Positions 552 through 36,928 of a DNA stretch of 64,000 bases are shown one piece after another. This DNA is from an archaeon (GTDB lineage: Archaea > Nanobdellota > Nanobdellia > SCGC-AAA011-G17 > GW2011-AR17). The stretch's first letter is position 1. Every line of letters begins with the position of its first letter. The notes under the pieces are model-generated. The model saw only the letters and a list, made by a program, of their open reading frames with translations. It did no database searches and was not told the DNA's origin. A program made the position numbers and the translations under genes. The stretch lies in NCBI GenBank assembly GCA_018692925.1, contig JABHLH010000002.1, forward strand, positions 38,576 through 102,575, given 5' to 3'.

Positions 552-1739
552 TCATTCGTATCTCAAAGCTTCAACAGGACTTAAACCAGATGCCTTGTAG
601 GCTGGATACAAACCAGAAAGAATTCCTACAAGTAAAGCGAAACCTAAACTTAATCCAACAACATTCCATAATATTGATATTTTCAAATATGAAAAACCTA
701 ACAAAGCTGCAACACCTTGAACACTAAATGCAAAGACGTACCCTAATACAACACCCATTACTCCTCCAGTTACTCCAATTAAAGCTGCTTCCATAACAAA
801 AATTAATAATATCTTTTCTTTAGATGCACCAACTGCTTTCATCAATCCAATTTGTTTTGTTCTTTCTAAAACAGAAGTAAACATAGAATTCATAATTCCA
901 ATCCCCCCTACAACTAAAGAAATTCCTGCAATCCCTCCTAATATAAATTGAACAACTGATAGTATACTCCCTAACTGAGTTAACAAACTTTCTGGTGTAA
1001 TTAAAAGAAAATCATCATCATCTCTTGCATCTTCTAACTTAATTGCAACTCTTTCTGCAACTTCATTTATATCTTCTCCTTCTTCAACTGTTGCATAAAT
1101 AAAATTTATTCCATCATCTTTATCATATATATCTTTTGCATCTTCTAAGGGGATATATAATATTCCATCTGTAGCTTGATCTCCAGAAGTTTCTAGTATT
1201 CCTACAACTTTAAATTTTTCATCTTCTATGATAATGCTATTTTTCACTAAAATTTCTTTATTAAAATATTCTTTAGCAAAAGAATTTCCAATAATTACTA
1301 CTTTTCTTTCTCCTGAACTAAACCAATCTCCTTCTTCTAAATCTAAATTAACATCAATTTTTCCTTCTTCAACTAAATCATTATCAATTCCCTTTAGAAA
1401 GGCCATACCATCAACATTATTATATTCCACACTTGCCGTTTCAAAAATAACTCCCCCTGCATAATCAACTCCTCTTACATCCTCAACCACTTCGAGATCA
1501 TCTGTTGTTAAACCTTCAACTCCCGTTGGAGGTCCAGTTAAACCTGCAGGGGTGACTCTAATCTTATCTGCACCCAAAACATTAAATTGTTCAACAATTG
1601 CACTTTCAAATCCATCTCCTAAACTAATTAAAGAAACAATTGCTGCAATACCTATAATAACTCCAATAATTGTCAACCAACTTCTTAATTGTTTATGTTT
1701 CATATTATTCCAGCTAAACATAATAAATTCATCTATCAT
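552..1739 (-). CDS. ABC transporter permease, FtsX/MacB-like
   Basis: 395 aa with an N-terminal TM helix, a large extracytoplasmic domain and C-terminal FtsX-type TM helices (GGIGIMNSM motif). Paralogue of the adjacent gene. Confidence 0.8.
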   Translation of the reverse strand: MIDEFIMFSWNNMKHKQLRSWLTIIGVIIGIAAIVSLISLGDGFESAIVEQFNVLGADKIRVTPAGLTGPPTGVEGLTTDDLEVVEDVRGVDYAGGVIFETASVEYNNVDGMAFLKGIDNDLVEEGKIDVNLDLEEGDWFSSGERKVVIIGNSFAKEYFNKEILVKNSIIIEDEKFKVVGILETSGDQATDGILYIPLEDAKDIYDKDDGINFIYATVEEGEDINEVAERVAIKLEDARDDDDFLLITPESLLTQLGSILSVVQFILGGIAGISLVVGGIGIMNSMFTSVLERTKQIGLMKAVGASKEKILLIFVMEAALIGVTGGVMGVVLGYVFAFSVQGVAALLGFSYLKISILWNVVGLSLGFALLVGILSGLYPAYKASGLSPVEALRYE

Positions 1740-2929
1740 TCTCTTAATGCCTCCACTGGATATAATTTTGCAGCTTCTCTTGCTGGAAGATAACCTGCTA
1801 TCATTCCTACAATAAATGCAAATAAAATTCCACCAATAACTACAAAGTATTCAATTTGTATATCTAAATATAAGAAACCTGCAGCCATCGCTGCTTCACC
1901 AATAGCAAATGAAATTAATATTCCTACAATGGCTCCAATTACTCCACCTAATAAACCAATTATTCCTGCTTCAACTACAAACATATTTCTAATATCTTCT
2001 GGGGATGCACCTACTGCTTTAAAGATACCAATTTCTTTTTTTCTCTCTAAAACATTAGTATACATAGAATTCATAATTCCTACTCCACCAACTACTAAAG
2101 CAATTGCAGCAATTCCTCCTAGAACTACTTGTAAGATATCTAAAATAACACTTAACTGTTCCAAAACTTGTTCTAATTTTAAAACTGTAAAATCTTCATC
2201 TCCTCTTGCTCTTTCAAGTTGTCTTTCAACATCTAGAGCAATATTATTAATATCTATTCCCTCAATTGTAATCACTTCAATAAAGGTTAATCCATCTTCA
2301 TCATCATAAATTATTCTTGCATCTTCCATTGTAATATATGTACTAGTATCATCTTCTTCATTCCCTATTGGTTCTGCAATTCCAATAACTTCAAATTTTT
2401 TTCCATCAATTTCAACTTTATTATTTACAACAATTTCTTTTTCAAAATAATTATCAGGGTCATTCGCTAATTTATTACCTAAAATAATAGATCCTTTTTC
2501 ATTATTATTAAACCATCTTCCACTTTCTAAACTCACACCTAAACCTTCAAACATAGTTTCTGCATCAACTTCTGTTTCATACCCCATTACTCCAGCAAAA
2601 ACATCTTCATTGTTGAAAGTAATTGTTTTTTTATCATAAAGATATGACGTTACATAATCTACTCCCACAATATCATCAATTACATCAAGATCTGCAGTCG
2701 TTAATTCACCTGTTCCTCTTACTTGTGTAAATCCTCCTGCAGGCATAACATAAATTCTATTTGTACCTAGTTCTTCAAACTGAGAAGTAATAGCATTCTC
2801 TAAACCTTGTGAAGTTGAAACTAAAGCAACAATAGAAGCAATTCCAATTATTATTCCTAGGATAGTTAACCAACTTCTAACTTTCCTATGAGTAATACTT
2901 TGAATTGCGAATGTCAAGTAATCTTTCAT
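1736..2929 (-). CDS. ABC transporter permease, FtsX/MacB-like
   Basis: 397 aa with the same architecture and VGGVGIMNSMYTNVLERKKEIGIFKAVGA motif. Overlaps the neighbour by 4 nt, indicating an operon. Confidence 0.8.
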   Translation of the reverse strand: MKDYLTFAIQSITHRKVRSWLTILGIIIGIASIVALVSTSQGLENAITSQFEELGTNRIYVMPAGGFTQVRGTGELTTADLDVIDDIVGVDYVTSYLYDKKTITFNNEDVFAGVMGYETEVDAETMFEGLGVSLESGRWFNNNEKGSIILGNKLANDPDNYFEKEIVVNNKVEIDGKKFEVIGIAEPIGNEEDDTSTYITMEDARIIYDDEDGLTFIEVITIEGIDINNIALDVERQLERARGDEDFTVLKLEQVLEQLSVILDILQVVLGGIAAIALVVGGVGIMNSMYTNVLERKKEIGIFKAVGASPEDIRNMFVVEAGIIGLLGGVIGAIVGILISFAIGEAAMAAGFLYLDIQIEYFVVIGGILFAFIVGMIAGYLPAREAAKLYPVEALRE

Positions 2930-4326
2930 TATAAACTCTTAAAGAATTTCCCAATCTTATTTGGCCATAACTTAATTCTACTCGGTCTAAAAATTAGTAT
3001 AATTCTGAATGGTAATTTTATCAATTCAATTAAGCCTGATTTTACTGCAACATCAAATTTATTTTCTATTCTCCAAGATTTGAAACCAAAGTAGATGAAC
3101 AATACAATTAACAGATAACAAATATATTTTATTGTACTTTTAGTTCCATTTGAATCTAACTCATATTTAGAAACTTCTGCACTTGTATACACAGGTAAAT
3201 TAACACTAAATTCTTCTTCATATTCTTCATTATAAGAATCCTTGTAAGTAACTTTAAATTTTATTTCTGTATCATCTTCTGCATTAACAAAAATATCATA
3301 GCTTGAAGTTTCAAAATCATCACTATCTAAATTTCCTAAGTATTCTTTGTTTGCACCAATAACAACATAACTATCATCTTCTAATAATTCTATATTCATA
3401 AATTTTAATTCTGTAGGTCCTACATTACTAACAGAAACAACAATTTCTCCTTTTCCACCTTCTTGGAAAGTATCAAAATTTTCTAAATTAAATGACAAAT
3501 CTGCTTCAGCACCAATCATAATTCCAAATGTATCTTGTTTAATAAATTCTGTACCATTAGAATTTTGGTAACTAATATTCATAGGGATTTTATAAACACC
3601 TGCTTCTGCATCTTCTTCAACAATAATCTCAAAATTAAAAGTATAATCTTCTCCTGCTCCTAATAAACTTAAACTTTTTTCTTTACTTGATTTGTAAGGA
3701 ACTATTGGCACATCAATTGAATCAATTGCTAAAACAAGATCAATATTTTTAAATGCACTTGTAGCTCCATTAATTATTGTAATATCTAGATCTGCAATTT
3801 TACCCGGAACTAATGTCTCAGGTTCACTAACAATACTATCTACATTTAGTGTAGCTTCAATTTCTTGTACATTAATATCTAAATAAGGAGTATAAACTCC
3901 ATTAGGATCATCTTCACTTGTATAAGTAAATCTTAATTCATTATCTCCTGCTGGCGCATCATCTGCAACTCTAACAACAAACTTTTTTATTACTTGTTCA
4001 CCTGGACCTAAATCTCCAACATCCCAAACAGCATCTTCTCCTTCTTTTAATTCAAATGGATAAGCTTCTAAAAATTCTAGCTCTATATTATTAACATCAT
4101 CTTGACCGACAATAGAAGTTGAACTTGACTCTTCAGTTTCAACAGCCATCCACAAATCAAAATATTCTCCTGGTGCAACTGGTGCTGGTGTATATTTTAA
4201 TGTAATTAATTGAACATCAATTATATTTTGTTTACTTGTATCAATCGTAACCGAACTGGTACCTGCATTCACAATACTCATTGTTAACAATATGACCAAA
4301 AATATTAATATTATTCCTCTTTTCAT
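2929..4326 (-). CDS. Large secreted protein with C-terminal membrane anchor, cotranscribed with the ABC exporter
   Basis: 465 aa with an N-terminal signal peptide (ILIFLVILLTMSIVNAGTSS), an acidic beta-rich body and a C-terminal TM (YICYLLIVLFIYFGF). Shares start/stop overlaps with its neighbours. Confidence 0.55.
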   Translation of the reverse strand: MKRGIILIFLVILLTMSIVNAGTSSVTIDTSKQNIIDVQLITLKYTPAPVAPGEYFDLWMAVETEESSSTSIVGQDDVNNIELEFLEAYPFELKEGEDAVWDVGDLGPGEQVIKKFVVRVADDAPAGDNELRFTYTSEDDPNGVYTPYLDINVQEIEATLNVDSIVSEPETLVPGKIADLDITIINGATSAFKNIDLVLAIDSIDVPIVPYKSSKEKSLSLLGAGEDYTFNFEIIVEEDAEAGVYKIPMNISYQNSNGTEFIKQDTFGIMIGAEADLSFNLENFDTFQEGGKGEIVVSVSNVGPTELKFMNIELLEDDSYVVIGANKEYLGNLDSDDFETSSYDIFVNAEDDTEIKFKVTYKDSYNEEYEEEFSVNLPVYTSAEVSKYELDSNGTKSTIKYICYLLIVLFIYFGFKSWRIENKFDVAVKSGLIELIKLPFRIILIFRPSRIKLWPNKIGKFFKSL

Positions 4327-5003
4327 TTTACCACCAGTCCATCTTTTAATTCAATAATTCTTTCAGCTTTTTTAGCTATATAATCATCATGTGTTACGAT
4401 TATTAAAGTTTTCCCTTCTTTTTTGTGCAACTCTTGTAATAAAGCTAAAATCTGTTCTCCAGTTTTTGTATCTAAATTACCTGTTGGTTCATCAGCTAAA
4501 ATAACTTCTGGATCATTTGCTAAAGATCTTGCAATAGCAACTCTTTGTCTTTCTCCTCCACTTAACTCTGAAGGTTTATGATCTAATCTATGGTCTAAAC
4601 CAACTTTTCTTAAAAGTATTTCAGCTCTTTTTTTTCTCTCTTCAGGCTCATAACCTTGAAAGATCATTGGAACCATAACATTTTCAACAGTTGTTAAACT
4701 CGGAATCAAATTAAAAGTTTGAAAAATAAAACCAATTTTCTTTCCTCTTATTCTTGCAAGTTCACCTTCATCTAAATTTGCAATATTTTTCCCATCTAAA
4801 TAGATTTTACCTTTTGTTGGGACATCTAAACAACCAACCATATTCAAACATGTACTTTTACCACTTCCACTCTTACCAATAATAGAAACAAACTCTCTTT
4901 CTTTTATATCAATATTAATCCCTCTAATTGCTGGAACTTCAACTTCTCCTAACTTATATATTTTCCAAGCATCCTGAACTCTAATCACACTCTTCTTTGA
5001 CAT
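4323..5003 (-). CDS. ABC transporter ATP-binding protein, MacB/LolD-type
   Basis: Walker A GKSGSGKST, ABC signature LSGGERQRVAIAR and Walker B ILADEPTGNLD. Confidence 0.9.
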   Translation of the reverse strand: MSKKSVIRVQDAWKIYKLGEVEVPAIRGINIDIKEREFVSIIGKSGSGKSTCLNMVGCLDVPTKGKIYLDGKNIANLDEGELARIRGKKIGFIFQTFNLIPSLTTVENVMVPMIFQGYEPEERKKRAEILLRKVGLDHRLDHKPSELSGGERQRVAIARSLANDPEVILADEPTGNLDTKTGEQILALLQELHKKEGKTLIIVTHDDYIAKKAERIIELKDGLVVK

Positions 5004-5035: not shown

Positions 5036-5644
5036 TTATGGTTTTTTCTTAATTTTCTTTCCATTTATTTTTTCTATTTTTTTAAATTTAGTAATATCAA
5101 AAGAAATACCTCTCATTAATACAGGTTTTTTATTTTTATAATAAGTCTTTCCTTCAACATGATGATATCTTATATTGTTCTTTCCTATTACTAATTTTAT
5201 ATCATGACTAAAACTACCTGTTTTTAATGATTTTTCAATGTCTTTTTTTACTCTATTTTTATCTTCAGGATGAACAATATCCAAATATGTTTCAAAATTT
5301 ATTTTCTTTCCTTTTTTCACCTTAAAAATTTTATACAATTCATCTGACCATTTAACTTTATTCTTTACTATATCCCACTCCCAAGCACCCATATTTGCTA
5401 TTCTAAATGCTTCAGATAAAGTCTCAGCAAGTTTTACAGCTTTTTTCTTTTCTTCTTCTAAATCTTCCAACATATTCAAAAGTGCTTCAGAGCTAATTTC
5501 TTTTTTTGAAGGAGTTTTCTTTTTCTTCTTGTTTATTTCTTTAGCAAGTTTTTCTCCTTTTGTTATTAATTTATTCTCTAAATAAGCTTCATCAATTATC
5601 TTTTGTGTTATTTTTTTTAAGATTTTTTTCATTCTTCTCACCAA
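5036..5644 (-). CDS. PAS-domain protein with a Lys/Glu-rich coiled-coil N-terminus
   Basis: C-terminal region WEWDIVKNKVKWSDELYKIF...DIVHPEDK...RYHHVEGK...MRGISFDIT matches a PAS fold. Confidence 0.55.
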   Translation of the reverse strand: MVRRMKKILKKITQKIIDEAYLENKLITKGEKLAKEINKKKKKTPSKKEISSEALLNMLEDLEEEKKKAVKLAETLSEAFRIANMGAWEWDIVKNKVKWSDELYKIFKVKKGKKINFETYLDIVHPEDKNRVKKDIEKSLKTGSFSHDIKLVIGKNNIRYHHVEGKTYYKNKKPVLMRGISFDITKFKKIEKINGKKIKKKP

Positions 5645-5646
5645 TA

Positions 5647-6849
5647 TTATTTTTTAATTTTTCTTTCAAGCACTTTTATTCTTTTCTTCAATTCAATCAT
5701 TTTTAATTCTCTATTTTCAGATAACTTTGAAAATCTCTCTAATTGTATTGTTCTTTTTTTACTTTTTTCTTTAGCCTTATTCATTTCGGATATAGCTTCT
5801 TCTGTACCAATCCCTAATTCGTGTTTAGAACTACCTGTTCTAAGTATTGCCAATTTCAAACTAGCTAATATTCTATCTAAAGAATCTATTAAATTATTAA
5901 TTTCAAAAATCTTACTTTCTTTTATTTGAATCTCAAAATTACCTTTACTAATCTCATCAACACTTTCTGTCAAATCTTTAATTGGTTTTGAAATATATCT
6001 TGAAACAAAAAAGCCCATAAAAGAAATTAAAAAGATAATAAGTAAAAGATTCTTAATGCTTGAATATATTACTCCTTTTTTAGTTTCTCCTAATGCTTCA
6101 GCTTCATCAATTTTAACAACTAGTCCTACATCTAATACTTCAATATACTTTGTAATTGCAATAACTTCTTCTCCTCTATAATCATTAATATCATATATAG
6201 TCTTTTCAACACCTGAAACTGCTTCCGCCATTGGGAGATGAGATGCTTCAATCATTTCATTAGCTTCAAATCTTCTTTGAGTAAAAAAAACTATATCTCC
6301 ATCACTATCTTGATAAGCTAATAAACTTTCTCCAGTTTCTCCAAGTCCTGTCTGGTCTAAAATAATACTATCAAAAACACCTAGTCTTGCTTCTGTAACA
6401 ACAAATCCTTCCTTAAATGGTGTAGCAAGTAATAGTGTCTCTTCTTCAAATATTTTAGAAGTATATGCTAGAATTATTGTTTCTTCTTCCTTTAAAAAAT
6501 CATTAATATTTATGATTTCATTAATAAATGTCTCATCAGATGAAGTAATGATCATACCTTCTGAATCAACTGTATATAAAATCTCAAAATCTTCTTGTAT
6601 CTTAATTATTTCTTTTAATTCATCATTACTAAGATTTTCGTGTGTTGCTGTTATTTGAATATTTTCAACATTCTGTTTTACAAAATCTTCTACAATATCT
6701 TCCATTAATTGCGATCTTGATTCTAAATGCATATTAATTTTCTGTTCAAGAAGGTTAGATGTGTCAAAATAATTATTTGACAACATTATAAAACCTGCTA
6801 ATATTCCAACTAGGATAAAACTAAAAATAATGATTTTAGATAATTTCAT
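5647..6849 (-). CDS. Membrane sensor protein: cache-like extracytoplasmic domain plus HAMP, no output domain
   Basis: TM1, a roughly 240-aa periplasmic domain, TM2, a HAMP-like segment (ISKPIKDLTESVDEISKGNFEIQI) and a coiled-coil tail. Confidence 0.6.
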   Translation of the reverse strand: MKLSKIIIFSFILVGILAGFIMLSNNYFDTSNLLEQKINMHLESRSQLMEDIVEDFVKQNVENIQITATHENLSNDELKEIIKIQEDFEILYTVDSEGMIITSSDETFINEIININDFLKEEETIILAYTSKIFEEETLLLATPFKEGFVVTEARLGVFDSIILDQTGLGETGESLLAYQDSDGDIVFFTQRRFEANEMIEASHLPMAEAVSGVEKTIYDINDYRGEEVIAITKYIEVLDVGLVVKIDEAEALGETKKGVIYSSIKNLLLIIFLISFMGFFVSRYISKPIKDLTESVDEISKGNFEIQIKESKIFEINNLIDSLDRILASLKLAILRTGSSKHELGIGTEEAISEMNKAKEKSKKRTIQLERFSKLSENRELKMIELKKRIKVLERKIKK

Positions 6850-6869
6850 TAGTTTTCCTCTTTTTTATT

Positions 6870-7271
6870 CTATTTAACATATTTCTCAAATAAAGGGAAT
6901 AATATTGTTTCTTCAGCACTAACTCTTTTTGATACAGCCTTAATTATTTCTTCTGTTTCATTAATAAATTTTTTATAATCAGTTAAAATTATATTCTTAT
7001 CCTGATATTTATCAAAGAATTTTAAAACCACTTTAGATACTTCATTCATTTCTTCTGAAAATTTATCCCCTGCTTCTTTTGCTTTATTATTTTCACAATC
7101 TTTTAAAGCCGGATATAACATTCGATCTTCTAACTTTAAATGTTCTATTAACAATTCTTTTAAACTAGATATTTCTTCAACTATTTTTTCATTAGATTTC
7201 AAAATTTTAATTTTTTCAAAATATCTCATAATTTCTACATGTTCTTCTTTTAATTCTTTAATTAAATCCAT
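6870..7271 (-). CDS. Hemerythrin-like (HHE cation-binding) protein
   Basis: 133 aa with repeated H/E-containing helices (EEHVEIMRYFE..., EHLKLEDRMLYPAL) typical of hemerythrin domains. Confidence 0.55.
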   Translation of the reverse strand: MDLIKELKEEHVEIMRYFEKIKILKSNEKIVEEISSLKELLIEHLKLEDRMLYPALKDCENNKAKEAGDKFSEEMNEVSKVVLKFFDKYQDKNIILTDYKKFINETEEIIKAVSKRVSAEETILFPLFEKYVK

Positions 7272-8058
7272 TTTTTTTCCTCTTAATTTTTTTCTTTGAT
7301 AAAAGCGAATAAGGGTTCATTAAACCTATTTGTATTATAGCCTTATAGATTAAATAAAATGATATAATCTTAAAAAAATGACCTACAAGATTTGATAATC
7401 CGAAAACGCTTACATAAAATGTAAATGCTAACTCTGCAAATATTGTAAAGATTATTGAGCTTATTATTAAATAAAAGATAATCTTATCAAATTTCTCTTT
7501 ATATTCCCATAAAAAAACAATAGATCCAATTAAAATAATAGAAATTATATATTCACTTATAATTTTAAATTGTGTTAATCCACTATCTACAATAAATGCA
7601 TCTGGAAATATTCTTAGATAAAATATGCTTACAAAAATAAAACTTGTAATAATAAAATAAATCAAAGAAGTCAACTTTGGTTTTAATTCCCTTATTATAA
7701 AAATAGGTGCTACTAAAAAAGAGAGAGCTTGTAGATAACGTGCAGCTATCCATAACTGGGTTGGTAAATTAGCATCAAATCCTGAAAATATATTTATCCC
7801 TTGATATGCTAATAAATGAACAAAATCTATACTTGCAATAAAAACTAAACTTATTCCTAAAAATAACAAATAATCATTATCAACAAAAAACCTTGAATTT
7901 CATGCAATCATAAATATTCCTACTGCAATAACAATACTAAATATTTCTGCTACACTATGGAATAATGCATAATTTTCATAAAAACTTGTTAACCAAATAC
8001 CTACTAAAGCTAAAATAAAAATAACTATTTCTAATTTGCTAAATATTTTTTCTTTCAT
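7258..8058 (-). pseudogene. Polytopic membrane sensor-domain protein interrupted by an in-frame TGA
   Basis: The ATG at 8058 opens a frame (MKEKIFSKLEIVIFILALVGIWLTSFYENYALFHSVAEIFSIVIAVGIFMIA) that hits TGA at 7902..7900. The same frame continues (NSRFFVDNDYLLFLGISLVF...) into the 203-aa ORF 7258..7869, which has no ATG start. Confidence 0.4.
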
Positions 8059-8070
8059 TATCAGACCTCT

Positions 8071-9978
8071 TTACTTTAATATTAACCTTAATTTATATTT
8101 AAATTCTTCGGATTTTTCTTTAGTTATTATTGATCTTGCAAATAGTAGATCTATTTGAGGGATCATAATTTTCAAATCCATATTACTTTTTACTTTATTA
8201 AAATAAAATTCTCCTTTTTTCTTTCCAATTATTTCAATATAAATATCTTTTATTTCTTTTTCAATTCCTTTTCTTATAACTCTTTTTTCAATTTTTTTAT
8301 GTGTTTCTCCACTTATTAAATATAAATTATCTACAAATTCTTCCGCTTGTTCTTGGTCTATAACTTTTTCTTTCTTAATTAAATTAATATAATTAATTAA
8401 CTCCTTTAAACCTAACTTATTTTGTGTATCTAATTCATTAAATTCTCTTTTTCCAATCGGACCTAAAAAAGATTTAAAAATATCTCTTATTTCCTCTTTT
8501 TTATCTGTTTTTTTAGAAAAAAGAAGTTTAATAGGTTCTATTTCTTTTACAGCTTTTAATGGGAAAGTAAAATTAAATGTAGTTCCAATATTTTCTTTAC
8601 TATTAAACCAAATTTTCCCTTTTTGAGATTTAACAATTCCTTTTGCAATTGCTAAACCTAATCCGGTTCCTAGGCTTTCTCTATACATAGTTTGTTTAGC
8701 TTGAAAGAAAGGTTCAAAAATTCTAGATTGTTGTTCTTTATTTATACCTCTTCCTTTATCTTGAACAGAAAACAATATTTCATTACTTTGTTTTTTTACT
8801 GATACATTTATACTTGTATTCTTTTTTGAAAACTTCACAGCGTTATTTAGTAGATTCCTTAAAACTTGCATTATTCTATCTGGATCAGATTCAATAATAG
8901 GTAGTTTTTCAATTTTTGTTTCTATTTTTATTTTCTTTTCTGGCATAAATAATGATGTCTCTTTTACTACTCTCTCAATATAGGGAGTAATATCTGTTTT
9001 TACAAATCTAAATTTTAACCTTGCAGCTTCAATTCTACTTATTTCTAAAAAATCTACAATAATATTATCTAACCTTTCTGTATTTCTAGCTACAATATCT
9101 AAAGATTCTTCTTGTTTTTTGTTTAACTTACCATAATATCCACCTATTAACATTTGTAATTGTGCTCTCATTGGAGTCATAGGGCTTCTTAATTCATGGC
9201 TTGTTATTGATATAAATTCTGTCTTGGATCTTTCTAATTGAGTGTGTTCTTTCTCTCTATATTCTAATATTTCTGCCGTTCTATTCAAAGAATTAGATAA
9301 TCTTTTTAATTCATCCTTTGTACTTATTTTTATTCTATATTTATAATTATTTTTTTCTAATTCATTAACCATCTCATTTAATCTTTTTATCGGTTTTGTA
9401 ATATTTTTTGAAAATAAATATCCTATAAACATTGTAAATATTAAGATTATTATTCCTATAATAAAGTAACTTAATTCTATATTTTTAACAGATTCAAGAG
9501 CTTGATCAGAATTGATTTCTCCAACAACAAGCCAATTTAAATTATTTATTAACTCTTTTGTATCTTCGTCTTTAATGTTAAGTGATCTTCCAAAAATTTC
9601 AATAACAGCAAAAGTTTTTTCTCCTTGATAATTTAAATGTTCTAATAATTGATCTTCTTTTGTTTCAAGTGCTAAATTTACACCTTCGGTATCTACTAAT
9701 AGATTTCCTGAAGAATTTTCAATAAATCTTGATTCTGTTAACATAATTCTATCTTCGTTTACAATATATATCTCTCCTGTTTCTCCTAGAATTCTTCTTT
9801 CACTTGTAATTTCATTTATTGCTCTAATATTTGTATCTCTAACTGCTATGGCTGTTATTGAAGATTTTGAAGAAGTTACAAGTGAAGAAGCTTTAACAGC
9901 AATCATAGATGCTGAATCTGAAATGAATGAAATGATTAATGATAATTTTTCAGTTAATGCTGTAAATGATACTATCAT
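8071..9978 (-). CDS. Sensor histidine kinase (cache-like sensor, TM, HAMP, HisKA, HATPase_c, about 150-aa C-terminal extension)
   Basis: H-box ITSHELRSPMTPM, N-box LLNNAVKFS, G-boxes DKGRGI and GTGLGLAIAKGIV, a TM (YFIIGIIILIFTMFIGYLF) and HAMP. N-terminal limit is uncertain (see findings). Confidence 0.85.
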   Translation of the reverse strand: MIVSFTALTEKLSLIISFISDSASMIAVKASSLVTSSKSSITAIAVRDTNIRAINEITSERRILGETGEIYIVNEDRIMLTESRFIENSSGNLLVDTEGVNLALETKEDQLLEHLNYQGEKTFAVIEIFGRSLNIKDEDTKELINNLNWLVVGEINSDQALESVKNIELSYFIIGIIILIFTMFIGYLFSKNITKPIKRLNEMVNELEKNNYKYRIKISTKDELKRLSNSLNRTAEILEYREKEHTQLERSKTEFISITSHELRSPMTPMRAQLQMLIGGYYGKLNKKQEESLDIVARNTERLDNIIVDFLEISRIEAARLKFRFVKTDITPYIERVVKETSLFMPEKKIKIETKIEKLPIIESDPDRIMQVLRNLLNNAVKFSKKNTSINVSVKKQSNEILFSVQDKGRGINKEQQSRIFEPFFQAKQTMYRESLGTGLGLAIAKGIVKSQKGKIWFNSKENIGTTFNFTFPLKAVKEIEPIKLLFSKKTDKKEEIRDIFKSFLGPIGKREFNELDTQNKLGLKELINYINLIKKEKVIDQEQAEEFVDNLYLISGETHKKIEKRVIRKGIEKEIKDIYIEIIGKKKGEFYFNKVKSNMDLKIMIPQIDLLFARSIITKEKSEEFKYKLRLILK

Positions 9979-15418: not shown

Positions 15419-16027
15419 ATGCAAAAAGCAATAGCTCTATTATCTGGTGGAATTGATTCTCCAGTAGCAATTTACAGAATGCAAGAACACTTTGACATAG
15501 TCGCTGTTCACTTTCACCAACTTCCTTTAACTGGTGAACATGAAATTGAAAAGGTAAAAGAATTAGCAAAAAAACTTAATGTGAAAAAATTATATTTAAT
15601 TCCTTTTGTTGATGTTTTCAAAGAACTTGTAGAAAAATGTAATCCTAGAGACTATTTTATTCTTTCAAAAATTGCAATGTTTAAAGCAGCTGAATTTATT
15701 GCAGAGAAAGAAAAAACTAACTTTCTAATCACAGGTGAAAATCTTGCACAAGTTTCTTCACAAACCTTATCTAATTTAAAATCTATAGAATCTCAATTAA
15801 AATTAAAAATATTAAGACCTTTACTAACTTTTGACAAACAAGAAATAATTAACATAGCAAGAGAAATTGAAACTTACGAAATTTCAAAAGGTCCAGAGAT
15901 TTGTTCTTTATTGGGTCCAAAAAATCCTTCAACAAAATCTTCAGTTTTCAAAATAAATCTTGAACTTCAAAAAATAGATTTGAATAAAATAATTCAAGAA
16001 AAAATAAAAGAAGCTAGTATCCTCTAA
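15419..16027 (+). CDS. thiI: Stand-alone PP-loop ATP pyrophosphatase domain of tRNA sulfurtransferase ThiI
   Basis: Exact PP-loop LLSGGIDSPVA. About 200 aa, matching the ThiI C-terminal domain. No THUMP domain in this ORF. Confidence 0.7.
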   Translation: MQKAIALLSGGIDSPVAIYRMQEHFDIVAVHFHQLPLTGEHEIEKVKELAKKLNVKKLYLIPFVDVFKELVEKCNPRDYFILSKIAMFKAAEFIAEKEKTNFLITGENLAQVSSQTLSNLKSIESQLKLKILRPLLTFDKQEIINIAREIETYEISKGPEICSLLGPKNPSTKSSVFKINLELQKIDLNKIIQEKIKEASIL

Positions 16028-30903: not shown

Positions 30904-31776
30904 ATGCACTGGGTAATACTTACATTAATTTCAGCAATATTAGTTTCCTTTGTAATATTGATTGAAAAATATGTTATTATTCATGATTTAAAAGATCCAG
31001 TAATTATGGCTGGGGTTCTAGGGCCTGGTTTCTTTTTAGTTTACACAATATATACTCTTATTTTTGGGACATTTATAATCTCTTTATCAGCAATGATTTT
31101 TGCATTTTTTGTTGGTGTCTTCCATGTGTTAGCTCTTTTCTTTTATTATAAATCAATAAAGAAAGAAGAAGTCTCAAGAATAATTCCTTTATTTTCAATT
31201 ACTGGGATTTTTATTTTAATTTTTGCTTTTTTCTTTTTTGGTGAAACTTTTTCATTAATTCAATATTTAGGAATTTTTGCAATAATTATAGGATCTTTTT
31301 TACTTTCTATAAAAAATTTTTCAGATTTAAGATTAAGCATAGCTTTTCTCTTTGCAATAATTTCTTCATTCCTTTTAGCAATGAGAGCCATTTTTGTAAA
31401 ATTTGCTTCAAATCTGATTCCTATTACTGGAATTTTCTTTTGGGTAGGTCTTGGGGTTTTAACTACTTCTTTAATTTTATTTATTACTCACTATCATAAA
31501 TTTTCTAAAAAAGAATTTGAAGGAATAGAAATCTTATTTTTTACAAGTTTACTTGCTGCACTAGGGATTCTATCCTTTTTTTCAGCAATTTCTCTAGCTC
31601 CTGTTACCTTAGTTTCAACATTATTTCAAACATATGTATTTTTTACTTTTATTGGAGCAACTATTTTAACTTTAGTTTATCCTAAATTTATTAGAGAAAA
31701 ATTGTCTAAAAAGATTTTTATTCAAAAATTAATTGCAATTATATTAATCTTTATAGGATCATATTTTATTTTATAG
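30904..31776 (+). CDS. EamA/DMT-superfamily transporter
   Basis: 290 aa with about 10 TM helices in two 5-TM halves. Confidence 0.65.
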   Translation: MHWVILTLISAILVSFVILIEKYVIIHDLKDPVIMAGVLGPGFFLVYTIYTLIFGTFIISLSAMIFAFFVGVFHVLALFFYYKSIKKEEVSRIIPLFSITGIFILIFAFFFFGETFSLIQYLGIFAIIIGSFLLSIKNFSDLRLSIAFLFAIISSFLLAMRAIFVKFASNLIPITGIFFWVGLGVLTTSLILFITHYHKFSKKEFEGIEILFFTSLLAALGILSFFSAISLAPVTLVSTLFQTYVFFTFIGATILTLVYPKFIREKLSKKIFIQKLIAIILIFIGSYFIL

Positions 31777-32794
31777 TTTCAACTTCAATCTTTTCTAAAT
31801 CACAAAATTCAGTAGAAAAATTATAAGCTCCTGCATTTAAGAAAACAATCTCATCTCCTTCTTTAAGATCTTTCAAATAAACTCTATACCTAAAAAGATC
31901 CATAGAACAAGGTGTAACTCCTTTTATTACATAAGCTTCTCCTTCTCCTTTTTTCAATTCTCCTTCTACTAATAATTTCACCGGAACAATCAAAGCATCC
32001 ATATCTGAGTTATATACAGAAGCATCAACAATAATATTATTATCATATATTCTCAAAACTTTTGTTACAAGTTTAACTGCTGGAGCTGCAATAAATCTTC
32101 CTGGCTCAACAATCATTTTTATTTCATAATTATTTAACCATTCTCTAAAATCTTTCAATTTCTTTTTAATCCCATCAACAACTTTCACATTTGTATTTGC
32201 ATATACAGAAGGTAATCCTCCACCAATATTCATATAATCTAAACTTTTCAAACATTCTTCATCTAAAACTAAAGAAATTTCTTCTTTAAGGTTCCATTCA
32301 CTCATATTTTGTGTTTTTCTATGGAAGTGTACGCCTAATTTATCAATCTTAGAATTTTCTTTTAATTCTATAACTCTGGAATTAATTATTTTTGAACTCA
32401 TTCCAAATACAAAGAATTTTTCTGTCCTCAAACTATGTTCTTTTAATTTTAATCTAAGCAACAAATTAACTTTGCCTTCATAATTTTCTAAAAACTTTAA
32501 TAAAATATCTAAATCTCTCTCATTATCGACTGCAAAATTGTCAATTTTTTTAGAAATTAAATCCTTTATTTCTTCTTCATTCCAACCTTGTGCTAAAAAT
32601 ATAACTCTTGACAAATCTTTAATATTTTTTAATTCATTTACTAAATGTACACTAAACATACAATTTTCATTTTCTTCTAAAATCTCAGTAACTAAAGAAT
32701 TTGTTTTAGAACTATAAGAAACCAAATCACAAATCTCTTCAATCTCTTTATATTTCTCTAAAACAATTTTCTTATCTAAAATAAATTTAGGCAT
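31766..32794 (-). CDS. Fold-III PLP-dependent decarboxylase (ornithine/arginine/DAP or carboxy(nor)spermidine decarboxylase family)
   Basis: NIGGGLP, EPGRFIAAPA and a C-terminal CSMDLF motif. Overlaps the deoxyhypusine synthase gene by 8 nt, indicating an operon. Confidence 0.6.
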   Translation of the reverse strand: MPKFILDKKIVLEKYKEIEEICDLVSYSSKTNSLVTEILEENENCMFSVHLVNELKNIKDLSRVIFLAQGWNEEEIKDLISKKIDNFAVDNERDLDILLKFLENYEGKVNLLLRLKLKEHSLRTEKFFVFGMSSKIINSRVIELKENSKIDKLGVHFHRKTQNMSEWNLKEEISLVLDEECLKSLDYMNIGGGLPSVYANTNVKVVDGIKKKLKDFREWLNNYEIKMIVEPGRFIAAPAVKLVTKVLRIYDNNIIVDASVYNSDMDALIVPVKLLVEGELKKGEGEAYVIKGVTPCSMDLFRYRVYLKDLKEGDEIVFLNAGAYNFSTEFCDLEKIEVETIK

Positions 32795-33743
32795 TCAATA
32801 AATCCTCCTCATCTAAAACTTCTAAAGCCCTAATCATTGCCATTGGGAAAGTAAATGTAACATCTCCAATCACTGTAGCAATATCTGAATCATCTTTCAC
32901 TTTACCCCATGATTTTGCTTCATTAGTTGTAGCACCTGACATTGATCCTGAAGTCTTATGTGCTGTGGTCATATAAACTGCATACTCAGCTCCTCCATTC
33001 AATAATGTACAAAGTATAGCGTGATGTTTAGAAATGCTTCCACCAAGAGCTATAACACCTTTCTTCTCATCATGAGATGTACTCAATAAAATATTACCAA
33101 AATCTTTCACAACATCTACAACAAAATCTTCATGGTTCTGTTGAAACAAATACAAATGAAATCCAAAAGCACCATCAGTTATAGCAGGACAGAAAATTGG
33201 AACATTATTTTTTGCAGCTTGATACAAGATAGAATTTTCATCATTTAATGTTAAACCAATCTCTTTCAATAAATCAGACACAGCCCATCTTTTCTTCTTT
33301 TCATACAATTGTTGTAAAATTCTAGACATCTTGTCTTCAAAATTCATATAACTCTCATTATTGATTGTCAAGTTTCCAACTCTATTAATTCCTTGCTCAT
33401 GTAACTCAACATCATCACTGTTAAAAGTTCCAATATTAAATTCTTCACCAGTAGCTTTCATAAAATCTTCTTCTAAACCACCAACAGTTGTTACAATAAT
33501 ATCAGCCATTCCTAACTTTATTAATTGTGCAAAGAATCCTCTCAATCCTGAAGTTACCATATTTGAAGTAAATGTTAAAAAAATCTTAGCATTATTTTTC
33601 TTCATCTTCACAAAAACTTCTGAAGCTTTATTCAATTCTATACTTTGAAACCCAACATGACCTAGCTCATTCACTAAATCTTTAACCGTAATATTCTTTT
33701 TCCATTTAAAATCTCGAACTTTTTTCATAATATAAACCTCCAA
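32787..33743 (-). CDS. Deoxyhypusine synthase
   Basis: TSNMVTSGLR, CPAITDGAFG and GGSISKHH blocks. 318 aa. Confidence 0.85.
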   Translation of the reverse strand: MEVYIMKKVRDFKWKKNITVKDLVNELGHVGFQSIELNKASEVFVKMKKNNAKIFLTFTSNMVTSGLRGFFAQLIKLGMADIIVTTVGGLEEDFMKATGEEFNIGTFNSDDVELHEQGINRVGNLTINNESYMNFEDKMSRILQQLYEKKKRWAVSDLLKEIGLTLNDENSILYQAAKNNVPIFCPAITDGAFGFHLYLFQQNHEDFVVDVVKDFGNILLSTSHDEKKGVIALGGSISKHHAILCTLLNGGAEYAVYMTTAHKTSGSMSGATTNEAKSWGKVKDDSDIATVIGDVTFTFPMAMIRALEVLDEEDLLNA

Positions 33744-33883: not shown

Positions 33884-34621
33884 ATGATCATAGTAAAATA
33901 TGCCGAAATTGCAATCAAAGGTAAGAATAGAGTAGATTTTGAGAGAAAGTTGAGAGAAAATATTAAAGATTGTATAAAAATAAATCGAATTCCTTTTGAA
34001 AAAGTTCGAAGAATGAGGGGAAGAATTTTAATTTACACTGATCAAGAATGTCCTCAGTTAAAAAATGTTTTCGGAATAGCTTCATTTTCATATGCTAAAA
34101 GATACTCACAAGATTTACAAACAATCAAAGAAGAAGCATTAAAACTTTACAAGAAAGGAACTTTCAAGGTGTTTGTAAAAAGATCAGATAAGGTTCTAAA
34201 AAATTCTATGGAACTAGCTGCAGAGATTGGCGCATATATTGTAGAGAAAACAAATGCTCCTGTTGATGTAAAAAATCCAGAAACAAAAATTAATGTTGAA
34301 TTATTTAATCACTTTGCTTATTTATACACTGAAACTAATCAAGGTCCTGGTGGTTTACCAATTGGTTCAGATTCGAATGTTATCTTATTACTTCAAAACA
34401 AAGATTCTATTGAAGCTGGATTAAGAATTTTAAAGAGAGGTTGTTCTTTAGATGTTTACAAAGAAAAAGATATTGACTATTCTAAATTAAAAGAATACGA
34501 ATATGGTTTTAGAATTAAAGAATTGGAAGAGATGCCTGAAGAACCAGAAGCTGTAATTGTATCAGATAAAGTAGATTCAATAAAAGATTATCCTTACTTT
34601 GTTTTAAGACCTTTAATATAA
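33884..34621 (+). CDS. ThiI-like THUMP-domain protein with a degenerate, truncated PP-loop
   Basis: N-terminus MIIVKYAEIAIKGKNRVDFERKL matches the ThiI ferredoxin-like and THUMP region. GGLPIGSDSNVILLLQNKDSIEAG sits where SGGIDS would be. Confidence 0.65.
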   Translation: MIIVKYAEIAIKGKNRVDFERKLRENIKDCIKINRIPFEKVRRMRGRILIYTDQECPQLKNVFGIASFSYAKRYSQDLQTIKEEALKLYKKGTFKVFVKRSDKVLKNSMELAAEIGAYIVEKTNAPVDVKNPETKINVELFNHFAYLYTETNQGPGGLPIGSDSNVILLLQNKDSIEAGLRILKRGCSLDVYKEKDIDYSKLKEYEYGFRIKELEEMPEEPEAVIVSDKVDSIKDYPYFVLRPLI

Positions 34622-34657: not shown

Positions 34658-35272
34658 ATGCAATATAAAATTCTTGGGAATGGAAACTTTGATAATATCT
34701 GTGATTCTCAAGCTTACAAAGATGTAAAAGAATATTTGAATTATTTAATCTCTCACCAAGGTCTTGATATTTTAGACATTAAAGTAACTCTTTATGGAAC
34801 TGTTAGAAATCCAGAATTTAATTTTTTTAGAAAAAAAGGATTATTTGGTTTCCTTGGAAAATCCAAAGTAAATTCAAAAGCACCTAATGGATATGAACAA
34901 GCACCTTATGTTACTATACCCCTAGGATCAACAAGAATAGATTCCTTAGATTACACAACTCACCTTAATGCTGCAAAATCTGCAAACTCTTCTTTTGGAG
35001 ATTGTCATGAAGTTTATTTTGCAATTACATTCAAAGAAACTAATAGGACAAATGAAGAAATTAGATCTTATTTTAAAAGGTACAGAAGAAAGAACAGTAT
35101 TAGGATTTACATTACTTCCTCAATTGCTGGTCAAGATATATCTAATTTATCTAATTACAAAGATTTAGAAGGGAATAAAATAACAAATAAAGATATTGCA
35201 GTTTACATCAGTATTGACGATCCAACTTCCAACTTATTATCATTTCCTTTAATAGAAGAGCAGGCTGCTTAA
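34658..35272 (+). CDS. Hypothetical protein, member of a tandem paralogue pair with an FG[DE]CH motif
   Basis: 204 aa containing SSFGDCHEVYFAI. Alignable to the next ORF. Confidence 0.45.
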   Translation: MQYKILGNGNFDNICDSQAYKDVKEYLNYLISHQGLDILDIKVTLYGTVRNPEFNFFRKKGLFGFLGKSKVNSKAPNGYEQAPYVTIPLGSTRIDSLDYTTHLNAAKSANSSFGDCHEVYFAITFKETNRTNEEIRSYFKRYRRKNSIRIYITSSIAGQDISNLSNYKDLEGNKITNKDIAVYISIDDPTSNLLSFPLIEEQAA

Positions 35273-35309: not shown

Positions 35310-35882
35310 ATGCCAAGGCTAAAGCAAGTAGATACTATTGTATACAAGAATGTTAACTTTGATACAATTGCTGAAAGAGTTTATTTATTTATCTTACAAC
35401 TAAAGGAAGAAAAACAATTAAAATCTTTAAGATTTGTTTTCTCCGGTACAATTATTCATAATCTTCCAAAAAAGAAAGCTTTTTTTTCTAGATTATTTTC
35501 AAGAAAAGAAGAGATTATTGAAGATTATACTCCTTATGAAACTGTAAATTTATATTTTGAAAATTTAGATAATATTCCTTATTTATATTCAGATTTACTT
35601 GGAGCAATTCGTCAACAAAATCCTCATTTTGGAGAATGTCATTCTTTTATGATTAACTTATATCCTTCAAAAAAAGCTCATAAATCAAATCTTTTAAATG
35701 ATATTCATATTTATACAGATCTTGTTGGAGAGAATGCTATGGAACTTGAAAAGTTAAAGGCTTTAAGATATCTAAAGGGAACAAATTTAGAAACTACTGT
35801 TAATGTTACTTTCCCTGCAGGCTATGAAAAAGAGTTCTTTAGACTTGAACAAAACCTTTTTAAACCATCTATAAAACCTTGA
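35310..35882 (+). CDS. Hypothetical protein, paralogue of the preceding ORF
   Basis: 190 aa containing NPHFGECHSFMINLY, with shared upstream blocks (F.GT....P......F). Confidence 0.45.
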   Translation: MPRLKQVDTIVYKNVNFDTIAERVYLFILQLKEEKQLKSLRFVFSGTIIHNLPKKKAFFSRLFSRKEEIIEDYTPYETVNLYFENLDNIPYLYSDLLGAIRQQNPHFGECHSFMINLYPSKKAHKSNLLNDIHIYTDLVGENAMELEKLKALRYLKGTNLETTVNVTFPAGYEKEFFRLEQNLFKPSIKP

Positions 35883-36928
35883 TTTCTATGAAAATATTTG
35901 TAAAAACCTTTGGCTGCACTTTTAACAAAAGAGACTCTGAAATTATTAAAGGGGTTTTATCTACTAATCAATTTGAAATTGTAGATTCCGAGGAGAAAGC
36001 AGACATTATTGTAGTTAATTCTTGTGGTGTTAAAGATCAAACTCAAAGCAAAATTATCTTTTACATTGAATCCTTAAACAAACCTGTTTATCTTGGTGGT
36101 TGCTTACCTAAAATTTTAGATCTAAAAAATATAAAAAATGTTAAAGGTGTTTTTGATACAAATACAATTAATAATTTACCTAATCAAATTAATGGAGAAA
36201 TTAAAGAACTTTTTTCTTCAAAGAAACTTAACAAATTAGAACTTCCTGTTCAGCAAGATAGTGAAGATACTTTAATCATTCAAATCTCAGAAGGCTGTTT
36301 AGGGGATTGTAATTATTGTGCTACTAAATTTGCTAGAGGGAAATTAAAATCTTATTCTATATCTGATATTGTAAACGCAATAAAAGGTTTCAAGGGTACA
36401 AGGGTAAATTTAACTTCTCAAGATACTGGTTGTTATGGTTATGATATTGATACAAATCTTGCAAATTTATTAAAAGAGATGGTAAAACTTGAAGGAGATT
36501 TTATAGTTAGAGTTGGAATGATGAATCCTGAACACATTTTAAAATTTTTACCTGACTTTGTTGAAATTTTCAAAGATAAAAGGTTCATGAGGTTCTTACA
36601 CATACCTATTCAATCCGGATCTAATAAAATTTTAAAAGAAATGAACAGAAAATATACTCTTGAACAATTCAAAGAATTAGTAAATGCTTTAAGAAAAGAT
36701 ATTCCTGACATTCACATAGCTACAGATATTATTATTGGTTATCCTACAGAAACTGAAGAAGATTTTTTAGAGACTAAAAAGTTTTTAGAAGAAATGAATT
36801 TTGAAGTATTAAACTTGTCTAAGTACACTGCAAGACCTGGAACTTATTCTAAAAAGAATTTAAAACCTTTAAAATCAGAAATTGTTAAAGAAAGAAGTAT
36901 TATTTTTGATAAATTTATAAAAAAATAA
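35879..36928 (+). CDS. Radical-SAM methylthiotransferase (MiaB/MtaB-like) lacking a TRAM domain
   Basis: MTTase N-terminal domain VKTFGCTFNKRDSE and radical-SAM CLGDCNYCATKFARG. Confidence 0.8.
   Translation: MISMKIFVKTFGCTFNKRDSEIIKGVLSTNQFEIVDSEEKADIIVVNSCGVKDQTQSKIIFYIESLNKPVYLGGCLPKILDLKNIKNVKGVFDTNTINNLPNQINGEIKELFSSKKLNKLELPVQQDSEDTLIIQISEGCLGDCNYCATKFARGKLKSYSISDIVNAIKGFKGTRVNLTSQDTGCYGYDIDTNLANLLKEMVKLEGDFIVRVGMMNPEHILKFLPDFVEIFKDKRFMRFLHIPIQSGSNKILKEMNRKYTLEQFKELVNALRKDIPDIHIATDIIIGYPTETEEDFLETKKFLEEMNFEVLNLSKYTARPGTYSKKNLKPLKSEIVKERSIIFDKFIKK

Follow-up and report, generated by a model that had tools for sequence, protein, structure and literature searches.

A PH1313-type ThiI-like protein with a lost PP-loop, and a stand-alone ThiI pyrophosphatase gene, in a DPANN-like archaeon

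Two ThiI-related genes and their domains

We consider a stretch of 64,000 nucleotides (the window) from contig JABHLH010000002.1 of an archaeal assembly (GCA_018692925.1), whose host is a DPANN-like archaeon with 29% G+C. Two genes in the window, 18 kb apart, are related to the tRNA 4-thiouridine synthetase ThiI/TtuI. The first, with which this study is mainly concerned, encodes a protein of 245 amino acids (aa) that carries the RNA-binding domains of ThiI and a degenerate, shortened ATP-pyrophosphatase (PPase) domain; judged from its sequence, it is most simply described as a catalytically dead paralogue of ThiI/TtuI. The second encodes a separate PPase protein. Besides these two, the window contains no full-length ThiI, and no second THUMP gene or other ThiI gene. 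The features of both genes are collected in Table 1.

The open reading frame (ORF) of the 245-aa protein starts with ATG (N-terminus MIIVKYAEIAIKGKNR), and the opposite strand carries no overlapping ORF of at least 50 aa. The Rfam scan places no family at the locus, and the promoter and terminator scans give nothing relevant there.

Table 1. Features of the two ThiI-related genes, in positions of the window (the whole-gene row includes the stop codon)
Feature	Positions	Strand	Basis
Whole gene, 245-aa PH1313-type ThiI-like putative pseudoenzyme	33884..34621	+	ORF list, sequence, family, AlphaFold model
Ferredoxin-like domain at the N-terminus (NFLD), aa 1-69	33884..34090	+	Pfam ThiI_fer PF22025, E 1.7e-18
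THUMP domain, aa 87-149	34142..34330	+	Pfam PF02926, E 8.7e-14
GGLP linker, aa 156-159	34349..34360	+	invariant columns of the family alignment
Miniaturised pseudo-PPase domain, aa 160-245	34361..34618	+	profile alignment to T. maritima ThiI 176-204 and 292-329
Degenerate PP-loop LLLQNKDSIEAG in place of LLSGGIDSPVAG, aa 168-179	34385..34420	+	alignments to 2c5s and 4kr6
Stand-alone ThiI PP-loop ATP-pyrophosphatase, 202 aa, proposed catalytic partner	15419..16027	+	PF02568, E 6e-54

An earlier reading of the window, made from the sequence only by a model, had matched the N-terminal part of the protein to the ferredoxin-like and THUMP domains of ThiI. Pfam bears this out: it finds these two domains and nothing else in the 245-aa protein, and the PPase family PF02568 is undetected. 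The ThiI model of NCBIfam (TIGR00342) aligns aa 2-191 with model positions 1-201 of 373 at 136.4 bits, about half of the curated cutoff of 264.5. An alignment of this kind, to ThiI hidden Markov models (HMMs), had been suggested as a check on the decay of the PP-loop.

The protein also aligns with the solved structures of Bacillus anthracis ThiI (2C5S), Thermotoga maritima ThiI (4KR6) and Pyrococcus horikoshii PH1313 (1VBK), and the RNA contacts of T. maritima ThiI (residue list from PMC4041423) can be carried over to it. In the NFLD, the residues K12, G13, N15, R16, R43 and R47 are kept and align to RNA-contacting loops of the T. maritima enzyme (4kr6 alignment). In the THUMP groove that receives the 3'-CCA, the T. 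maritima residues K104, V105, G126, A127, V138 and R141 correspond to K95, V96, G116, A117, V127 and K130. The residues aligned to T. maritima RNA contacts are conserved or invariant across the family columns. The linker that follows reads GGLPIG (aa 156-161); its G157 and P159 do not vary within the family, and G157-L158-P159 is the most conserved element in the second half of the protein. By these alignments, the 245-aa protein keeps the tRNA-gripping half of ThiI, namely the NFLD, the THUMP domain and the RNA-contacting residues aligned within them.

The other half is degenerate and ends early, as the sequence-only reading had it. LLLQNKDS aligns to LLSGGIDS of T. maritima ThiI, with S182 replaced by Q, G183 replaced by N and G184 deleted, and the SGGxDS of canonical ThiI/TtuI is absent. 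The chain stops 66 residues past this loop, at VLRPLI, which corresponds to the RPL strand of ThiI (T. maritima R313-L315), and both the catalytic Cys344 and the entire C-terminal subdomain are therefore absent. The pseudo-PPase domain contains a strand-helix-strand unit, KRG, the family motif LKEYEYG, VSD and the terminal VLRPLI; the middle of a PPase domain and everything past the RPL motif are missing. Neither the dimer-interface loop (DI-loop, TGExxGQVxSQT) nor the catalytic cysteine (Cys344 in the E. coli and T. maritima enzymes) of a complete PPase domain is found. The AlphaFold (AF2) model, for which an alignment of 79 sequences served as input, has a compact fold with a predicted local distance difference test score (pLDDT) of 96.5, and its pseudo-domain consists of ~85 residues with five short strands (DSSP).

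A comparison of the C-terminal domain with the PP-loop family by hhalign in global mode gives a probability of only 24%, and the homology is therefore drawn from the PDB alignments, Foldseek and the family profile. The alternative that the C-terminal region is unrelated to PP-loop domains does not hold, as the region aligns to two segments of the T. maritima PPase domain (Table 1). The C-terminal part is thus a homologue of the ThiI PP-loop domain that has lost the ATP-binding loop and is cut before the catalytic cysteine, and the earlier statement that the ATPase half is inactivated and truncated stands.

Could the small domain still perform catalysis of another kind, without a PP-loop, on tRNA position 8 or nearby? 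It does have conserved residues (R185, G186, C187 in the close clade, Y205, G208, D228, T229 and R242), and in pseudoenzymes the catalytic residues have sometimes been relocated (PMC10211241). We regard such an activity as quite improbable, however. No family or structure match extends beyond ThiI and PH1313, the domain offers no more than its ~85 residues and five short strands, and across the wider family only A178, R185, G186, P243 and L244 reach a conservation of at least 90%; these are too few and too structural to make up an active site.

The PH1313-type family

The closest known protein is PH1313. Searching the PDB with the AF2 model, Foldseek ranks 1vbk_A (PH1313) first (E 8e-25, TM-score 0.85, 294 columns), and it aligns the catalytic ThiI structures over only ~205 columns, a stretch made up of the N-terminal domains plus the first strand-helix-strand. 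With the family profile, PH1313 reaches 225 bits (E 1.4e-65), T. maritima ThiI 164 and B. anthracis ThiI 163; the profile puts the family-specific LKKYEYG opposite LKRYSYG of PH1313. A single-sequence phmmer search does not separate PH1313 from the catalytic ThiI proteins.

The likeness extends to the architecture. Both proteins have the NFLD, the THUMP domain and a shortened PP-loop-like domain in a total length of 240-315 aa, and in both the loop is degenerate at the same, homologous position (ILHDELS in PH1313, LLQNKDS or LLEDKxS in the family). MMKRG and the LK(K/R)YxYG motif are also common to them, the latter as LKRYSYG in PH1313 and LKEYEYG in the 245-aa protein. They differ in that PH1313 has 307 aa while the window protein ends exactly at RPLI, making its pseudo-domain smaller still; the identity is 27% over the structural alignment, and the host of PH1313 belongs to the Thermococcales. 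The 245-aa protein is a DPANN member, extra-short, of the known but uncharacterised PH1313-type ThiI-like family. A 2023 review (PMC9957541) lists PH1313 as a "ThiI-like protein" in which several conserved ThiI residues are missing, with a PP-loop domain that is smaller owing to a C-terminal deletion and with no confirmed activity.

Canonical ThiI/TtuI, as represented by the B. anthracis, T. maritima and Methanococcus maripaludis enzymes, has the same NFLD, THUMP domain, linker and first PPase strand-helix-strand, and the same conserved RNA-contact residues. The 245-aa protein differs from it in lacking Arg264 and the DI-loop ATP contacts in addition to SGGxDS, Cys344 and the C-terminal subdomain, and catalysis would need a second polypeptide.

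The gene is not decaying. Compared with its 96%-identical orthologue (P0001, locus L001), it shows a synonymous divergence (dS) of 0.57, a nonsynonymous divergence (dN) of 0.028 and a dN/dS of 0.048, and the differences fall mostly at synonymous sites. Taken by part, aa 1-159 have a dN/dS of 0.036 and the dead domain (aa 160-245) has one of 0.07. The gene is under strong purifying selection, the dead domain included. The term "remnant", which the sequence-only reading had used, does not suit a gene with these ratios and with a large family of uniform length, PH1313/1VBK among its members. The lost SGGxDS and the shortened C-terminus are what one would also see in a pseudogene in progress; that reading is rejected, with next to no probability left to it, in view of a dN/dS of 0.05 at this dS, the occurrence of intact, equally long ORFs across hundreds of lineages and the confident, compact fold.

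A word-indexed search returns 328 homologues. Among the best 120 of the 328, nearly all have 243-285 aa, and the named sources are Woesearchaeota, Nanoarchaeota or plain "archaeon". SGGxDS is found in 0 of the 110 family members that were aligned, whose consensus reads LL(E/Q)(D/N)xxS..A, then MMKRG(C), LKxYxYG and VLRPLI. An exhaustive HMMER profile search covers 1.84 billion representatives, of which the best 150 (50%-identity cluster representatives) were evaluated: all but one (149/150) lack S[GSA]GxDS, 141 of the 150 have 240-315 aa, and the representative at rank 150 still has an E-value of 1e-70. The survey of relatives that had been advised finds the motif missing in all but one of the proteins evaluated. 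A metagenome scan gives mostly bacterial full-length ThiI, with only five truncated-type loci among the matches listed.

The PH1313-type family is widespread in DPANN archaea and occurs also in Pyrococcus (PH1313) and in an Archaeoglobus metagenome-assembled genome (MAG), where locus L040 is of the truncated type as well. In a neighbour-joining tree of the N-terminal domains, most of the truncated forms, PH1313 and L040 are grouped with three full-length forms, namely L043 (Thermoplasmata), L051 (DHVE2 group) and L041 (labelled as a Thermotogaceae MAG). Truncated and full-length forms are not cleanly separated in this tree, and there is no clean PH1313-type clade.

Because the family is large, uniform in length and inclusive of PH1313/1VBK, its architecture is old and family-wide. 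The suggestion of gene fission with complementary degeneration therefore has to be divided: the second term describes fairly what is an old state of the whole family, and a local fission event falls away. Simple fission is also unlikely since it would leave no pseudo-PP-loop domain on the THUMP half.

The names under which these proteins are public deserve a remark. In the public annotations of P0004, P0028, P0036, P0171, P0212 and others, dead proteins of 245-260 aa are called "tRNA uracil 4-sulfurtransferase" or "tRNA 4-thiouridine(8) synthase ThiI", and stand-alone ThiI PP-loop proteins are called "7-cyano-7-deazaguanine synthase". Both labels are likely mis-annotations.

The stand-alone PPase and a possible two-subunit synthetase

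The intact PP-loop domain that had been pointed out at 15419 is confirmed by its strong match to PF02568 (Table 1). The protein aligns to positions 173-368 of TIGR00342 and has no NFLD and no THUMP domain. Alignments to 2c5s and 4kr6 show that it retains SGGIDS, the DI-loop TGENLAQVSSQT and RPLLTFDK (RPLxxxDK in the ThiI pattern), and its Cys162 is aligned to the catalytic Cys344 of T. maritima ThiI. Each of the marks by which a ThiI PPase is recognised (PF02568, SGGIDS, DI-loop, RPLxxxDK and catalytic cysteine) is accordingly present, and the protein can be taken as a complete, intact ThiI PPase domain with nothing attached. Its homologues have ~204 aa and are 64-73% identical, far better conserved than the THUMP protein (35-68%).

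Stand-alone PPases come in two sequence classes, one with CxxC plus a further cysteine and one with no CxxC, a division that follows work on the iron-sulfur (Fe-S)-dependent archaeal ThiI (PMC9825150, PMC5372739). The first class has the pattern of the Fe-S-dependent archaeal enzymes and is found at loci L010 (6160-6783, minus strand) and L018 (5297-5947, minus strand). The window type has no CxxC and a conserved C-x-H ... EIC[C/S/N]LL pattern. The L010 protein has SQGIDS in place of SGGIDS. In other lineages, a stand-alone ThiI PP-loop gene is located directly upstream of the cysteinyl-tRNA synthetase gene (L167/L168, 10001-11990; L172, 2001-4081; L169, 10001-16332), with a gap of 2 bp in L167/L168, 270 bp in L172 and 4 kb in L169. 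In L172, an Aminotran_5 (cysteine-desulfurase-like) gene is 1.7 kb from the PP-loop gene. The proximity of these genes could be a sulfur-supply link.

How might a PPase without RNA-binding domains and an RNA-binding protein without a PPase activity be related? The structures of T. maritima ThiI with RNA (PMC4041423) provide a template. ThiI works only in dimeric form, with an interface formed mainly by the PPase domains, and uridine 8 (U8) of the tRNA enters the active site of the opposite subunit, so that the dimer acts in trans. A hydrogen bond between the subunits connects Gly168 of the linker to Asp319 of RPLSGFDK within the partner subunit's PPase domain (PMC4041423).

We propose that the 245-aa protein and the stand-alone PPase would form a dimer of the same type, via their PPase domains, and copy the trans-acting ThiI dimer. 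The 245-aa protein would contribute the docking of the tRNA and the pseudo-PPase domain as a dimerisation platform, and the 202-aa protein would contribute ATP binding, the adenylation of U8 and the transfer of sulfur via Cys162. The combination of an NFLD-THUMP-dead PPase chain with a chain that is live PPase only would make exactly one complete half-site. Features of both sequences lead us to this arrangement, together with the retained RNA-contacting residues of the 245-aa protein. The GLP linker is invariant and the partner keeps the aspartate of RPLLTFDK, which correspond to the two sides of the Gly168-Asp319 contact; and the pseudo-domain keeps the segment aligned to T. maritima 292-329, which is located beside the DI-loop. 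We infer both the physical interaction and the product, 4-thiouridine at position 8 (s4U8), and we hold the chances to be balanced that the docking and catalytic subunits form such an asymmetric heterodimer and make s4U8. U8 is present in almost all tRNAs, and both tRNA genes of the window have it.

The same idea can be carried to the whole family. PH1313-type proteins would then be the missing tRNA-docking subunits of a two-gene s4U8 synthetase that many archaea have: an ancestral trans-acting ThiI homodimer would have been duplicated, the copies would have degenerated complementarily into an obligate asymmetric heterodimer, and the docking subunit would be modular, working with CxxC (Fe-S-type) and non-CxxC partners. 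This broader proposal is put forward tentatively, as its chances in our judgement fall slightly short of even. Literature searches turned up no split or heterodimeric ThiI, and the two-subunit model for the PH1313 family is unpublished as far as literature searches show.

Comparable divisions of labour exist elsewhere. Tan1/THUMPD1, the partner of the acetyltransferase Kre33/NAT10, may serve by analogy as a functional precedent for a THUMP protein that works for a separate enzyme, being likewise a non-catalytic NFLD-THUMP protein that supplies tRNA recognition as a molecular ruler. The 245-aa protein does not belong to that family by sequence, however: the sole match is the THUMP domain of human THUMPD1 (2dir) at E 0.11, Tan1 has no pseudo-enzyme domain, and the partner of Tan1 is an acetyltransferase, not a paralogous PPase. 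The trypanosome AdoMetDC-prozyme and the Tad2/Tad3 tRNA deaminase are systems in which a homo-oligomer is replaced by a pair of a dead and an active paralogue, the dead one being retained for assembly or for binding the substrate. Their folds and chemistry are unrelated to those considered here, where the active partner is also without the RNA-binding half and the losses are complementary.

Both genes are found together on seven contigs, that of the window counted. On two of the six others, L010 and L018, they lie 3-4 kb apart by a direct ORF and HMM scan. The rest are known from exact matches, in bp, of the size of the longest contig between the two homologue lists: contigs of 147,824, 396,457 and 77,692 bp, and one of 405,185 bp (L016 and P0248). 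This matching was made among the matches listed (best 120 per list); where it shows no pair, the partner gene may still be present.

Several observations weigh against the two-subunit reading. Several long THUMP-bearing contigs (841,562, 408,148 and 357,065 bp) and many long PPase-bearing ones (613,700, 617,121 and 596,151 bp among them) have no partner among the matches listed, and the loci around two such PPase genes contain no THUMP gene within 10 kb. A PPase gene is located within 10 kb in only 2 of ~26 truncated-type loci, and in the loci surveyed the two genes are never in one operon. Where contigs were scanned directly, PPases of both classes accompany the truncated THUMP protein, which fits a modular partner and also fits no specific relationship. 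An ordinary ThiI of full length is present in at least one Woesearchaeota MAG (L048). The clade of the window stops at RPLI, while most other members retain ~15 more residues (GYsxxEI...) that correspond to the RPLxGxDKxEI helix of ThiI. Finally, PH1313 crystallised as a homodimer (PMC9957541). The survey of co-occurrence is incomplete, and the pairing may not be obligate.

Some of these points would also suit a different function, that of a stand-alone, non-catalytic tRNA-binding homodimer with no dedicated link to the 15419 gene, which would serve as a tRNA chaperone, shield the acceptor stem, or compete with or regulate the formation of s4U8. The structure of PH1313 as a dimer with no demonstrated activity is in line with it, as are the missing operon link and the many long contigs of either family on which no partner is seen among the matches listed. 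We consider this function unlikely, since a ThiI PPase without an RNA-binding module needs something to position U8, the tRNA affinity of THUMP alone is low according to the literature, the GLP linker with its cross-subunit role is invariant, and the two genes do share the seven contigs.

Neighbouring genes and what the pairing would mean

The sequence-only reading had described the neighbours of the THUMP gene as tRNA-modification genes. One such gene is indeed there, a MiaB-like-B/e-MtaB radical-SAM methylthiotransferase at 35879-36928 on the plus strand (TIGR01578, 329 bits, model positions 1-351 of 421); it is the only one, and it is located 1.26 kb downstream, with two ORFs without matches intervening. 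These two (34658-35272, 204 aa, and 35310-35882, 190 aa, both on the plus strand) are distantly paralogous (24% identity, E 1e-6) and have no match in Pfam, NCBIfam or the PDB. The pair stands between the THUMP and MiaB-like genes in the window, the P0004 contig and L001, and not in L005. No TRAM RNA-binding domain is found in the MiaB-like protein with Pfam and NCBIfam. Since the gene that follows runs on the opposite strand, TRAM has not been split off downstream. With 343-349 aa, the orthologues in L001, L005 and the P0004 contig are just as short.

A MiaB-like protein without its own RNA-binding domain raises the alternative, also suggested earlier, that the THUMP protein is an adaptor for a different enzyme, in analogy to Tan1/THUMPD1 and Kre33/NAT10, with the methylthiotransferase as the candidate. 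The two genes are co-oriented in the window, L001 and the P0004 contig, and they overlap by 4 bp in L005. Their adjacency is confined, however, to the window's own clade and is absent in L004, L006 and all the more distant family loci; since it is limited to this clade and shared there with the genes for deoxyhypusine synthase, the ornithine-decarboxylase-like enzyme, TrmB and DNA ligase, it is inherited synteny. By the THUMP-CCA ruler, a target should lie close to positions 6-10 and not at A37 (PMC4041423), and the pseudo-domain is homologous to the dimerisation domain of ThiI and to nothing in MiaB. We therefore do not follow the adaptor suggestion and think a partnership with the MiaB-like enzyme very unlikely.

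On the other side of the THUMP gene, at 31766-33743 on the minus strand, are genes for deoxyhypusine synthase and a PLP-dependent Orn/Arg-decarboxylase-like enzyme, which overlap by 8 bp. The same pair adjoins the THUMP gene in L001, L004, L005 and L009 and looks like a conserved hypusine/polyamine gene pair. Farther away, a sensor cluster at 5036-9978 on the minus strand (PAS, HAMP, a MASE3 membrane sensor and a HisKA/HATPase histidine kinase) adjoins an ABC/FtsX (MacB-like) exporter at 552-5003; it holds more signalling genes than one would expect in a DPANN-like genome of 29% G+C.

Proteins of 245-285 aa of this type should not be named "tRNA uracil 4-sulfurtransferase", as several sources do, and a DPANN genome should be predicted to have s4U capacity only when both genes are present. 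If the pairing of the 245-aa protein with the stand-alone PPase is true, it would assign a function to the PH1313 family, a structural-genomics orphan with a structure solved in 2005 that has stood unexplained for ~20 years. It would explain how the many archaeal stand-alone ThiI PP-loop proteins, often mis-annotated as QueC or ThiI, find U8, and it would offer a clean example of a pseudoenzyme subunit that evolved from a dimer working in trans.

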